Shown here in pieces: positions 5,166 through 50,480 of a stretch of 64,000 nt of DNA; position 1 is the first letter of the stretch; each line of letters begins with the position of its first letter. This stretch comes from Escherichia coli (GTDB taxonomy: Bacteria; Pseudomonadota; Gammaproteobacteria; Enterobacterales; Enterobacteriaceae). The DNA is taken from the NCBI RefSeq assembly GCF_003334785.1, contig NZ_QOWV01000007.1; one strand, written 5' to 3'. Position numbers and translations under genes: made by a program. The notes under the pieces are model-generated. The model was not told the DNA's origin. It worked only from the letters and a program-made list of their open reading frames with translations, and made no database searches.

Positions 5166-6884
5166 ATGCGTACTAGCCAATACCTGCTCTCCACTCTCAA
5201 GGAGACACCTGCCGACGCCGAGGTGATCAGCCATCAGCTGATGCTGCGCGCCGGGATGATCCGCAAGCTGGCCTCCGGGTTATATACCTGGCTGCCGACC
5301 GGCGTGCGCGTTCTGAAAAAAGTCGAAAACATCGTGCGTGAAGAGATGAACAACGCCGGTGCGATCGAGGTGTCGATGCCGGTGGTTCAGCCAGCCGATT
5401 TGTGGCAAGAGAGTGGTCGTTGGGAACAGTACGGTCCGGAACTGCTGCGTTTTGTTGACCGTGGCGAGCGTCCGTTCGTACTCGGCCCAACTCATGAAGA
5501 AGTTATCACTGACCTGATTCGTAACGAGCTTAGCTCTTACAAACAGCTGCCGCTGAACTTCTATCAGATCCAGACCAAGTTCCGCGACGAAGTGCGTCCG
5601 CGTTTCGGCGTCATGCGTTCCCGCGAATTCCTGATGAAAGATGCTTACTCTTTCCATACTTCTCAGGAATCCCTGCAGGAAACCTACGATGCAATGTATG
5701 CGGCCTACAGCAAAATCTTCAGCCGCATGGGGCTGGATTTCCGCGCCGTACAAGCCGACACCGGTTCTATCGGCGGCAGCGCCTCTCACGAATTCCAGGT
5801 GCTGGCGCAGAGCGGTGAAGACGATGTGGTCTTCTCCGACACCTCTGACTATGCAGCGAACATTGAACTGGCAGAAGCTATCGCGCCGAAAGAACCGCGC
5901 GCTGCTGCTACCCAGGAAATGACGCTGGTTGATACGCCGAACGCGAAAACCATCGCGGAACTGGTTGAACAGTTCAATCTGCCGATTGAGAAAACGGTTA
6001 AGACTCTGCTGGTTAAAGCGGTTGAAGGCAGCAGCTTCCCGCTGGTTGCGCTGCTGGTGCGCGGTGATCACGAGCTGAACGAAGTTAAAGCAGAAAAACT
6101 GCCGCAGGTTGCAAGCCCGCTGACTTTCGCGACCGAAGAAGAAATTCGTGCCGTGGTTAAAGCCGGTCCGGGTTCACTGGGTCCGGTAAACATGCCGATT
6201 CCGGTGGTGATTGACCGTACCGTTGCGGCGATGAGTGATTTCGCTGCTGGTGCTAACATCGATGGTAAACACTACTTCGGCATCAACTGGGATCGCGATG
6301 TCGCTACCCCGGAAGTTGCAGATATCCGTAACGTGGTGGCTGGCGATCCAAGCCCGGATGGCCAGGGTACGCTGCTGATCAAACGTGGTATCGAAGTTGG
6401 TCACATCTTCCAGCTGGGTACCAAGTACTCCGAAGCACTGAAAGCCTCCGTACAGGGTGAAGATGGCCGTAACCAAATCCTGACGATGGGTTGCTACGGT
6501 ATCGGGGTAACGCGTGTGGTAGCTGCGGCGATTGAGCAGAACTACGACGAACGAGGCATCGTATGGCCTGACGCTATCGCGCCGTTCCAGGTGGCGATTC
6601 TGCCGATGAACATGCACAAATCCTTCCGCGTACAAGAGCTTGCTGAGAAACTGTACAGCGAACTGCGTGCACAAGGTATCGAAGTGCTGCTGGATGACCG
6701 CAAAGAGCGTCCGGGCGTGATGTTTGCTGATATGGAACTGATCGGTATTCCGCACACTATTGTGCTGGGCGACCGTAACCTCGACAACGACGATATCGAA
6801 TATAAATATCGTCGCAACGGCGAGAAACAGTTAATTAAGACTGGTGACATCGTCGAATATCTGGTGAAACAGATTAAAGGCTGA
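5166..6884 (+). CDS. proS: Prolyl-tRNA synthetase (class II)
   Basis: ORF-track entry starts at an upstream in-frame ATG; the start at MRTSQYLL (5166) gives 572 aa with class II motifs and an editing insertion. Confidence 0.95.
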
Positions 6885-6890
6885 TGCCAG

Positions 6891-6921
6891 AAAGGGTCCT
6901 GAATTTCAGGGCCCTTTTTTT
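6891..6921 (+). terminator. Intrinsic terminator after proS
   Basis: AGGGTCCTGA...TCAGGGCCCT hairpin followed by TTTTTTT. Confidence 0.65.
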
Positions 6922-6937
6922 ACATGGATTGTATAAA

Positions 6938-7762
6938 ATGGATAAACCAAAGGCGTACTGCCGCCTGTTTCTCCCCAGCTTTCTTTTACTTTCGGCTTGT
7001 ACCGTTGATATCAGCCAGCCAGACCCATCAGCCACAGCAGTAGATGCCGAGGCAAAAACATGGGCTGTCAAATTCCAGCATCAAAGCTCTTTCACCGAAC
7101 AATCAATAAAAGAAATAACGGCACCTGATCTCAAACCCGGCGATTTGCTGTTCTCCTCAAGCCTTGGGGTAACCTCATTTGGAATCCGCGTCTTCAGCAC
7201 TTCCTCTGTGAGTCACGTTGCAATCTTTCTGGGTGATAATAACGTTGCAGAAGCGACAGGCGCTGGCGTCCAGATCGTTTCCCTTAAAAAAGCGATGAAG
7301 CATAGTGATAAGCTTTTCGTCTTACGAGTCCCGGATCTTACCCCGCAACAAGCCACAGATATCACCGCGTTTGCCAATAAAATCAAAGATAGCGGTTATA
7401 ACTATCGCGGCATTGTCGAATTTATTCCCTTTATGGTGACTCGCCAGATGTGCTCACTGAATCCGTTCTCCGAGGATTTTCGCCAACAGTGCGTCAGCGG
7501 CCTGGCGAAAGCGCAGTTAAGCAGTGTGGGCGAAGGAGACAAAAAGTCGTGGTTTTGTTCGGAATTTGTCACGGATGCCTTTGCCAAAGCCGGGCATCCA
7601 CTTACACTGGCGCAATCGGGCTGGATTAGCCCTGCCGATCTGATGCATATGCGTATTGGTGATGTCTCTGCGTTTAAGCCAGAAACGCAGTTACAGTATG
7701 TTGGGCACCTGAAGCCTGGGATTTATATCAAGGCGGGTCGCTTTGTTGGTTTGACCCGGTGA
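6938..7762 (+). CDS. yaeF: Putative lipoprotein, YaeF/YiiX family (predicted permuted papain-like hydrolase)
   Basis: Start chosen at MDKPKAYCRLF (274 aa); signal peptide with lipobox LLSAC; conserved Cys in WFCSEF. Confidence 0.85.
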   Translation: MDKPKAYCRLFLPSFLLLSACTVDISQPDPSATAVDAEAKTWAVKFQHQSSFTEQSIKEITAPDLKPGDLLFSSSLGVTSFGIRVFSTSSVSHVAIFLGDNNVAEATGAGVQIVSLKKAMKHSDKLFVLRVPDLTPQQATDITAFANKIKDSGYNYRGIVEFIPFMVTRQMCSLNPFSEDFRQQCVSGLAKAQLSSVGEGDKKSWFCSEFVTDAFAKAGHPLTLAQSGWISPADLMHMRIGDVSAFKPETQLQYVGHLKPGIYIKAGRFVGLTR

Positions 7763-7764
7763 TA

Positions 7765-7890
<126 letters not shown>

Positions 7891-7961
7891 AACGTGCAAA
7901 TTCAAAATGTTGAAATATATCCTTCTGGCCTGTTTTGCGTTTGTTTCTGTCTCAAGACGGG

Positions 7962-8672
7962 TTACTGCCCCAAACTACTGCAATCCTGGTTGGGGTAAAA
8001 TTTCCCTGCCGTATCGGGTGCCAATACTTTAGTCGGCGCACCGGTATCCGGATTACCCTCAAGCGTAAAGTGACCTTCTACTGACAGTAACACCGGTTTT
8101 TCACTGTGACCGCGCGCAGCCAGGTAGCTACGCTCCAGCTCTGCGTTATTCGCTACCATGAAACGTTTTCCGGTCGCGCAATCAGTGAAGGTCGCCGCAT
8201 CAGCCATATAAAAATACATGCCCCGCAGGGTCATCGGCGTCATAGGTAAACTGGATTGTGCCGCTTCCAGCGTATAGTTGAACTGCGATTCAATCGGATT
8301 GCCTTCACGATCGAGCATCTCCAGCGCATCGCCTTTCGCCCGATAATATGACTTTTCACCTTTGCTGTCGGTTAATACCAGCTTGTCAGCGGTTCGCGCC
8401 CATGTACCGTAGGAAGCGAAGGAGGAAGGTTCTTCACGAGCACCGAGATAACGCTCATTCATCACCCATGTTCCGTCTTTTTCGAGGAACAGAGAGGTTT
8501 CGATTCCTTCGCAATCGGCACACGGCAGCACGCCGCGCCAACTTTGCGGCATCGGTTTCAGTTCGGCAGCCTGCGCCGGAGAAAGCGTATCGACTTCGGC
8601 CCGATTATTACATCCCATCAGAGTAAAGAGGCTGATTACAGCCATCGCTGTCACTATCGCTTTTTTCACCAT
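7962..8672 (-). CDS. nlpE: Outer-membrane lipoprotein NlpE (Cpx-pathway surface sensor)
   Basis: 236-aa ORF with lipobox LMGC and a CxxC motif (LPCADCEG). Confidence 0.92.
   Translation of the reverse strand: MVKKAIVTAMAVISLFTLMGCNNRAEVDTLSPAQAAELKPMPQSWRGVLPCADCEGIETSLFLEKDGTWVMNERYLGAREEPSSFASYGTWARTADKLVLTDSKGEKSYYRAKGDALEMLDREGNPIESQFNYTLEAAQSSLPMTPMTLRGMYFYMADAATFTDCATGKRFMVANNAELERSYLAARGHSEKPVLLSVEGHFTLEGNPDTGAPTKVLAPDTAGKFYPNQDCSSLGQ

Positions 8673-50344: not shown

Positions 50345-50480
<136 letters not shown>

Follow-up and report, generated by a model that had tools for sequence, protein, structure and literature searches.

In the stretch of DNA analysed here (64,000 nucleotides of Escherichia coli contig NZ_QOWV01000007.1, assembly GCF_003334785.1; hereafter the window), the gene yaeF very probably encodes a lipoprotein-anchored thiol hydrolase whose periplasmic domain is a circularly permuted NlpC/P60 domain (Peptidase_C92, YaeF/YiiX-like). 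The enzymes to which domains of the YaeF clade are fused, together with the gene context of their phage relatives, point the clade tentatively toward peptidoglycan, unlike the prevailing view that such enzymes are directed at lipids. The yaeF open reading frame (ORF) occupies positions 6938-7762 on the plus strand (274 codons followed by TGA), with proS upstream on the same strand, ending at 6884, and nlpE downstream in convergent orientation (Table 1).

A first-pass annotation, made by a model from the letters of the window, had proposed a YaeF-type lipoprotein at this position. Its coordinates match the annotated coding sequence (CDS) to the base, since the RefSeq yaeF of E. coli DH5alpha (WP_001336393.1, 'YaeF family permuted papain-like enzyme') occupies exactly window positions 6938-7762 (+); the window is K-12-like, sharing 100% identity over 6800-8000 with the chromosomes of DH5alpha and other strains of K-12 type. 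In other words, yaeF is an already annotated E. coli gene, for which RefSeq, NCBIfam and UniProt names carry the gene, the family and the prediction of a lipoprotein, and the first-pass annotation is a correct re-identification of a known, biochemically uncharacterised gene. The YaeF/YiiX (C92) family is itself named after YaeF and is attributed by citing papers to Anantharaman and Aravind (2003). As a finding of a genome scan the gene is ordinary, all of this being in the standard annotation already; it is nevertheless among the remaining E. coli K-12 envelope proteins that have a clear catalytic fold but no assigned substrate. The substrate had been described as unknown in the first-pass annotation as well, and our literature search found no experimental work on YaeF, neither an activity nor a phenotype.

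Fold and predicted catalytic residues

Membership of YaeF in the permuted papain-like family was evaluated with profile hidden Markov models (HMMs) and with structure prediction. The NCBIfam equivalog model NF008552 ('YaeF family permuted papain-like enzyme') matches YaeF residues 1-274 over model positions 1-274 with 534.1 bits against a cut-off of 279 (E 5.3e-161), while the YiiX equivalog model reaches only 19.8 bits against a cut-off of 216. Pfam PF05708 (Peptidase_C92) was also matched (E 2.9e-8, residues 65-156), and a second, weak piece covers the surroundings of Cys207 (E 3.2); the match is split in two because a clade-specific insertion intervenes. The canonical Pfam family NLPC_P60 gave a weak match around the His region (E 4e-4). 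A search of PDB sequences with the single YaeF sequence was marginal (3kw0 at E 0.11), and a profile of 75 family members retrieved BcPPNE (3kw0, E 2.4e-14) and YiiX (2if6, E 1.7e-11).

An AlphaFold2 model of YaeF was built on the alignment of the same 75 family members, with a mean predicted local distance difference test (pLDDT) score of 89.8 and a predicted template modelling (pTM) score of 0.88. The model superposes on solved permuted NlpC/P60 members at 2.1 A root-mean-square deviation; identity to YiiX and BcPPNE across the superposed core is 25-26%, and the next structural neighbours are TseH, PLAAT4 and MARTX RID. The HMM matches and the predicted structure together bear out the permuted papain-like (NlpC/P60) fold of YaeF/YiiX type that had been read from the letters.

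The catalytic residues of the two closest solved structures are His49/Glu64/Tyr115/Cys128 in YiiX and His49/Glu64/Tyr127/Cys154 in BcPPNE (Xu et al., PMC3142127). HMM alignments place YaeF H93, E105, Y154 and C207 on the YiiX residues in that order, and on the catalytic positions of BcPPNE as well, which confirms the permuted order His, Glu, Tyr, Cys in YaeF. A missing catalytic dyad had been named in the first-pass annotation as a ground for refuting it; the 2.1 A superposition and the aligned catalytic residues speak, indirectly, for a Cys-His dyad in YaeF. The predicted nucleophile lies within W205-F206-C207-S208-E209-F210, the WFCSEF motif whose cysteine had been picked out in the first-pass annotation as conserved and which is indeed so (74 of the 75 family members).

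YaeF differs from its solved relatives in the region between the tyrosine and the nucleophile. The spacing from Tyr to Cys is 53 residues in YaeF, compared with 13 in YiiX and 27 in BcPPNE, and the extra length is modelled as a two-helix insertion (helices 156-173 and 179-193). The insertion carries two conserved cysteines, Cys172 and Cys185, which probably form a periplasmic disulfide, and the insertion may also shape a clade-specific substrate pocket. YaeF further differs from YiiX (26% identity) in having a lipobox and a conserved C-terminal extension (YVGH257LK). BcPPNE, from Bacillus cereus, is no lipoprotein of a Gram-negative envelope, and its lysine-binding, restrictive S1' residues Glu67/Asp68 are missing in YaeF (AEATGAG in YaeF vs mEsvEDdG in BcPPNE).

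Signal peptide, lipobox and predicted location

The YaeF N-terminus, MDKPKAYCRLFLPSFLLLSAC, reads as a three-part lipoprotein signal peptide, with a basic n-region (K3, K5, R9) followed by a hydrophobic core and then by L18-S19-A20-C21. These last four residues, the end of MDKPKAYCRLFLPSFLL-LSAC21, conform to the lipobox pattern [LVI][ASTVI][GAS]C, so that the signal peptide and lipobox (LLSAC) named in the first-pass annotation hold up by sequence reading and pattern match. The possibility that the lipobox might be absent in orthologues had been raised there as a reason to doubt the assignment; Cys21 is invariant in 21/21 orthologues spanning about 12 enterobacterial genera, and T22, at position +2, is kept in 19/21. 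A lipobox is also present in roughly half of the short homologues (~200-300 aa) that are more distant.

By the established +2 sorting rule of lipoproteins, Lol-dependent sorting to the outer membrane is predicted for YaeF because its +2 residue is Thr22 and not Asp, and the mature protein is most likely anchored in the inner leaflet of that membrane.

Fusion partners of YaeF-like domains

An HMM search of 1.8 billion representative proteins yielded 697 YaeF relatives. Besides lipoproteins of ~270 aa, many of these are proteins of 400-1700 aa without a signal peptide, in which the YaeF-like domain keeps the catalytic residues and the Cys pair. The domains of 10 fusion proteins were scored, and they were assigned to the YaeF clade because their scores on the YaeF model (121-212 bits) far exceed those on the YiiX model (at most 36 bits).

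Pfam domains were then tallied in 65 multidomain homologues. The commonest partner is Peptidase_C70 (22), followed by Amidase_2 (7), Amidase_3 (6), M15/VanY-type peptidases and Extensin-like_C (~5 hits), Trypsin (4), Phage_lysozyme (3), Trypsin_2 (3), PG_binding_1 (1) and a subtilase (S8, 1). Partner domains of peptidoglycan hydrolase type occur in at least ~19 of the 65, and a lipase, phospholipase or acyltransferase partner domain in none (0/65 by Pfam). Examples include Amidase_3 + YaeF-like + C70 (P0172), lysozyme + C70 + YaeF-like (P0163) and AmpD-like amidase + YaeF-like (P0162); at one fusion locus, the adjoining gene encodes another Amidase_3 + VanY protein. Such an architecture is usual for multi-enzyme wall hydrolases, in which an NlpC/P60 or CHAP module serves as the endopeptidase.

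Several of the large fusion proteins are found in a recurrent gene cluster, which we observed on three unrelated contigs (L004, 3401-15681; L005, 334-10127; L091, 422-9149). Three ORF families, encoding products of ~333-370, ~244-260 and ~699-734 aa, are common to the three contigs (BLASTP E 1e-8 to 1e-69). The other ORFs of the cluster had no Pfam or PHROG match, and NCBIfam gave only a chance-level ParM hit (E 0.005). Possibly the cluster encodes a system, not described before, for wall degradation or toxin delivery. Many of the large fusion proteins begin with the N-terminal motif MPAQIRPNRLEVTDRFPMLGFTIRT.

Phage relatives

YaeF residues 54-237 match the phage family phrog_1128 (E 2.8e-22). 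By tblastn, relatives with 25-31% identity to YaeF were located in the tail/baseplate modules of a Ralstonia P2-like phage and of Bacillus herelleviruses, and tail/baseplate modules are the normal place of virion-associated peptidoglycan hydrolases. In RefSeq these phage proteins bear the label of phrog_1128. The phrog_1128 proteins differ from YaeF in being single-domain (~155-160 aa) and in having no lipobox; because identity is only 25-31%, they may be nearer to the BcPPNE/YiiX branch than to the YaeF clade. The family carries the label 'enoyl-CoA hydratase/carnithine racemase-like', with 'peptidoglycan peptidase' in some records. The former label seems to be an annotation error that has spread, and these proteins are more plausibly hydrolases associated with the tail.

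Proposed mechanism and the choice of substrate

We propose that YaeF would be processed through Sec, Lgt and LspA and anchored by acylated Cys21. His93, oriented by Glu105, would deprotonate Cys207, which would attack a substrate carbonyl polarised by Tyr154; the resulting acyl-thioester intermediate would be resolved by water or, if YaeF is a transferase, by an acceptor. The two-helix insertion, probably stapled by Cys172-Cys185, would take the place of the segment by which the S1 pocket of YiiX is formed. The bond cut may be an amide in a peptidoglycan stem peptide or in a peptidoglycan-attached peptide, an assignment that we consider plausible though short of probable; YaeF would then act as a minor, outer-membrane-tethered peptidoglycan peptidase and not as a lipid amidase. 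As an account of the locus as a whole, a lipoprotein hydrolase with a possible peptidoglycan substrate and possible expression by read-through (see below) is likely.

Several lines of evidence weigh against a peptidoglycan substrate. YiiX was co-crystallised with a fatty acid, and both of the closest solved structures have hydrophobic S1 pockets (PMC3142127). The permuted NlpC/P60 enzymes of measured activity, namely LRAT/PLAAT, Tox-Act1 and TseH, all act on acyl or lipid groups (PMC12994826), and for Staphylococcus aureus LnsA, a protein needed for the N-acylation of lipoproteins, the closest homologues are all permuted NlpC/P60 enzymes (PMC7387801). A 2023 classification review calls the C92 enzymes lipid amidases (PMC10318531). 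The membrane anchoring of YaeF is equally compatible with a lipid substrate. The fusion partners of YaeF-like domains also include general proteases (C70, trypsin, S8), and therefore the large fusion proteins could be degradative toxins with mixed targets. Finally, four distant homologues that are stand-alone lipoproteins each have a different gene neighbourhood, which lends the substrate assignment no support, the neighbours being cmoA/B-cutC, trxC-DTW, pepP and a fatty-acid hydroxylase, respectively.

YaeF could accordingly be an outer-membrane amidase, esterase or acyltransferase directed at lipid or acyl groups, using the same Cys207 thioester chemistry to remove or transfer the fatty acyl chain of a phospholipid, a lipoprotein N-terminus or a lipo-amino acid. 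We regard this as a real possibility, albeit one that we would not call probable. It has in its favour the closest structures, YiiX with a fatty acid in its hydrophobic S1 tunnel and BcPPNE, and the next structural neighbours, TseH, PLAAT4 and MARTX RID; Tox-Act1 and TseH are phospholipases, the LRAT/PLAAT proteins are acyltransferases or phospholipases, LnsA is involved in lipoprotein N-acylation, and the lipoprotein anchor would put the YaeF domain beside the membrane. However, YaeF is only 25-26% identical to the YiiX/BcPPNE core and falls far below the cut-off of the YiiX model, and the segment that forms S1 is replaced by a clade-specific insertion of 40 residues with a predicted disulfide. 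The fusion tally also runs the other way, with no lipid-enzyme partner in any of the 65 multidomain proteins as against peptidoglycan hydrolase domains in at least ~19. TseH (6v98), Tox-Act1, PLAAT/LRAT and MARTX RID are much more distant from YaeF than YiiX and BcPPNE are, and their lipid activities are measured, whereas any activity of YaeF is a prediction; in a published tree they fall in clades separate from YaeF (PMC12994826).

On a further reading, which is improbable, YaeF would be a protease whose targets are envelope proteins and not peptidoglycan or lipid, and would process or degrade, for example, a second lipoprotein or some periplasmic protein. A papain-like triad fits peptide-bond hydrolysis, proteases are the commonest fusion partners (Peptidase_C70 in 22/65, with the trypsin and S8 domains listed above), and the neighbouring gene nlpE, itself conserved in position, codes for an envelope stress lipoprotein. 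Nevertheless, no general protease was found in the literature consulted among NlpC/P60-superfamily proteins, nlpE is convergent with yaeF and forms no operon with it, and the gene neighbourhoods yielded no candidate partner or substrate.

Returning to peptidoglycan, a functional comparison within E. coli can be made with the canonical NlpC/P60 peptidoglycan endopeptidases MepS/Spr, MepH, NlpC and YafL, which belong to the same superfamily and possibly share a substrate class with YaeF if the fusion evidence is right. MepS is also a lipoprotein, and YaeF shows weak local similarity to it around GD...SHVxIY (E ~4e-3). We tentatively put forward, as a possible reading, that the YaeF clade is a peptidoglycan-directed branch of the permuted NlpC/P60 enzymes, that E. 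coli has in YaeF an overlooked outer-membrane-tethered peptidoglycan peptidase, and that the same domain is an endopeptidase module in the proteins of the unannotated cluster. If this is true, YaeF possibly cuts stem peptides or the link between peptidoglycan and protein, the sweeping description of C92 enzymes as lipid amidases is wrong for the YaeF clade, and the YaeF-like domain is the endopeptidase module of large multi-enzyme wall-degrading proteins that lack a signal peptide and are encoded in a conserved, unannotated cluster. An answer either way, peptidoglycan or acyl, would make the list of E. coli enzymes that remodel the wall and membrane more complete, and the YaeF substrate would put to the test the widespread idea that permuted NlpC/P60 enzymes are all directed at lipids.

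Conservation of yaeF

Full-length orthologues of YaeF with 50-82% identity were found in Citrobacter, Klebsiella, Enterobacter, Intestinirhabdus, Serratia, Cedecea, Buttiauxella and other genera, and more distant ones in Pantoea, Yersinia, Neisseria, Kingella and Snodgrassella. Across the 21 orthologues, Cys21, His93, Glu105, Tyr154, Cys207, Cys172 and Cys185 are all invariant. The gene order proS-yaeF-nlpE is retained in Klebsiella and Serratia. When a 1.2-kb query (6800-8000) was compared with 5426 complete E. coli genomes, all of them gave some match, and at least 80% of the query was covered in 5415. The ratio of nonsynonymous to synonymous substitution rates (dN/dS) between the K-12 yaeF allele and other Escherichia and Citrobacter alleles is 0.06-0.20, which indicates that yaeF is under purifying selection.

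No Salmonella YaeF turned up in a protein orthologue search or in a scan of one genome per species, no direct check having been made. Citrobacter, Klebsiella and Serratia carry yaeF at the same position between proS and nlpE, which suggests a loss specific to the Salmonella lineage. The protein database also holds many truncated YaeF clusters, many of their entries coming from short contigs.

It is very unlikely that yaeF is decaying or non-catalytic in E. coli and poorly expressed behind the proS terminator: the lack of room for a promoter of its own, the many truncated protein clusters, the K-12 F97 where the family has Tyr, and the two orthologue searches without a Salmonella sequence would fit such a history, but dN/dS is low, the gene is full-length in 5415/5426 complete genomes, the orthologues all retain the lipobox, the Cys pair and the four catalytic residues unchanged, and short contigs account for many of the truncated entries.

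Two variable positions were observed. Codon 97 (7226-7228), four residues past His93, encodes Phe in the K-12-type allele and Tyr in 68/75 members of the wider family as well as in E. coli O157 and N58. Position 240 is Ile in K-12 and O157, Ser or Thr in the other E. coli alleles examined, and Glu in most other genera.

Table 1. Features of the yaeF locus in the window, and two phage relatives of YaeF on their own contigs
Feature	Position	Strand	Basis or context
proS intrinsic terminator, GC-rich hairpin and T-run, right after the proS stop (6882-6884)	6889..6921	+	Folding, covariation
Conserved short leader, 23 nt; only Shine-Dalgarno-like element GGA at 6926-6928	6915..6937	+	Near-invariance
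yaeF CDS, preprolipoprotein of 274 aa; mature form 254 aa, ~27.6 kDa	6938..7762	+	ORF, HMM matches, RefSeq
Signal peptide (aa 1-20) and lipobox; C21 predicted acylated N-terminus	6938..7000	+	Sequence reading
Permuted NlpC/P60 (Peptidase_C92) catalytic domain, ~aa 60-260	7115..7717	+	
His93 codon CAC, predicted general base	7214..7216	+	On His49 of YiiX and BcPPNE; 74/75 members
Glu105 codon, predicted third (His-orienting) triad residue	7250..7252	+	On Glu64 of YiiX and BcPPNE; 75/75
Tyr154 codon, predicted oxyanion / P1-carbonyl tyrosine	7397..7399	+	On Tyr115 of YiiX; Y in 68/75, F in 6
Cys172...Cys185 pair in two-helix insertion (aa ~156-193), predicted periplasmic disulfide	7451..7492	+	C172 in 71/75, C185 in 72/75
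Cys207 codon TGT in WFCSEF, predicted nucleophile at N-terminus of helix 207-217	7556..7558	+	On Cys128 of YiiX and Cys154 of BcPPNE; C in 74/75
REP/BIME cluster between convergent yaeF and nlpE	7767..7890	.	REP-type imperfect palindromes, inverted repeats, Rfam
nlpE, convergent neighbour	7962..8672	-	RefSeq annotation
Phage relative, Ralstonia phage RsoM1USA gp26	L093 5986-6450		Tail/baseplate module
Phage relative, Bacillus phage Juglone gp97	L094 5001-5486		Tail/baseplate module

The proS-yaeF interval and expression of yaeF

The proS terminator is a hairpin of 13-14 bp (~6889-6919) followed by a run of 7 T that ends at 6921. Its predicted folding free energy (dG) is -22.6 kcal/mol (z -4.2), and equally good folds were obtained in 0/200 shuffles. 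The pairing is kept at 9 loci from Escherichia, Citrobacter, Klebsiella and Intestinirhabdus, with compensatory changes on both sides in 5 of 10 pairs. A simple terminator scan missed this element, probably because flanking A/T pairs lengthen the stem and take up part of the T-run; folding and covariation show that the hairpin is real.

The yaeF ATG follows the T-run after only 16 nt. The leader TTTTTTACATGGATTGTATAAA is near-invariant in Escherichia, Citrobacter and Klebsiella while the adjoining third-codon positions of proS vary, which suggests that it may function as a translation-initiation or read-through element. The whole gap between proS and yaeF is ~53-55 nt in E. coli and Klebsiella and 201 nt in Serratia. 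A scan of 6500-8100 reported no sigma-70-like promoter upstream of yaeF, its sole site being internal to the gene (7581), and inspection by eye revealed no convincing sigma-E-like or CpxR-like box before yaeF.

Three candidate features in or near this interval were rejected. The TATAAA at 6932-6937 abuts the ATG, and transcription from it would therefore begin inside the CDS. An alternative in-frame start, ATG 6884, overlaps the proS stop (TGATG) and would add 18 codons through the terminator hairpin; it was set aside because it is not conserved in Citrobacter and Klebsiella while ATG 6938 is invariant, and because translation from it would cross the terminator. An Rfam 'rimP leader' match at 6860-6972 was attributed to chance (E 0.52; 23.5 bits, below the gathering score of 47).

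Since those 16 conserved nt are all that lies between T-run and ATG, we propose that transcription of yaeF in E. coli may start at a promoter within proS or may reach the gene by reading through the proS terminator, a proposal on which we regard the case as evenly balanced. With either origin, low basal expression of yaeF would be expected, and yaeF would not be an independent unit insulated by terminators. The first-pass annotation had described the gene as sitting alone between strong terminators, formed by the proS terminator and a cluster of repetitive extragenic palindromic (REP) sequences. The proS terminator stands, by its folding energy and covariation. For the REP side no terminator was shown, and 'alone' needs qualifying, given the 16 nt to the proS T-run and the upstream region in which no sigma-70-like promoter was found.

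The REP cluster downstream of yaeF

A REP cluster of the bacterial interspersed mosaic element (BIME) type lies downstream of yaeF, as had been noted from the letters; its palindromes are matched above threshold by Rfam RF02564 (naRNA4, REP-derived) with 92.8 bits against a gathering score of 59.5 (7807-7883, minus strand), and it is multicopy, the median number of places that match the 1.2-kb query in an E. coli genome being 35. The hairpin at 7853-7882 is followed by CTACAAAAAAC, that is, by an A-run instead of a U-run, and the terminator scan reported no terminator-like site on the yaeF strand in 7763-7960. The label of a strong terminator is unsupported on this side because an A-run trails the hairpins and the scan was empty.

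The window holds a second REP copy at 50353-50386, with 2 mismatches to the 34-nt REP at 7853-7886. At the yaeF-nlpE site itself the REP cluster is variable or absent in some strains. In several E. coli lineages (for example strain N58), similarity to the query stops with the last codon of yaeF, TGA, and yaeF and nlpE lie 155 nt apart as against 199 nt in the window.

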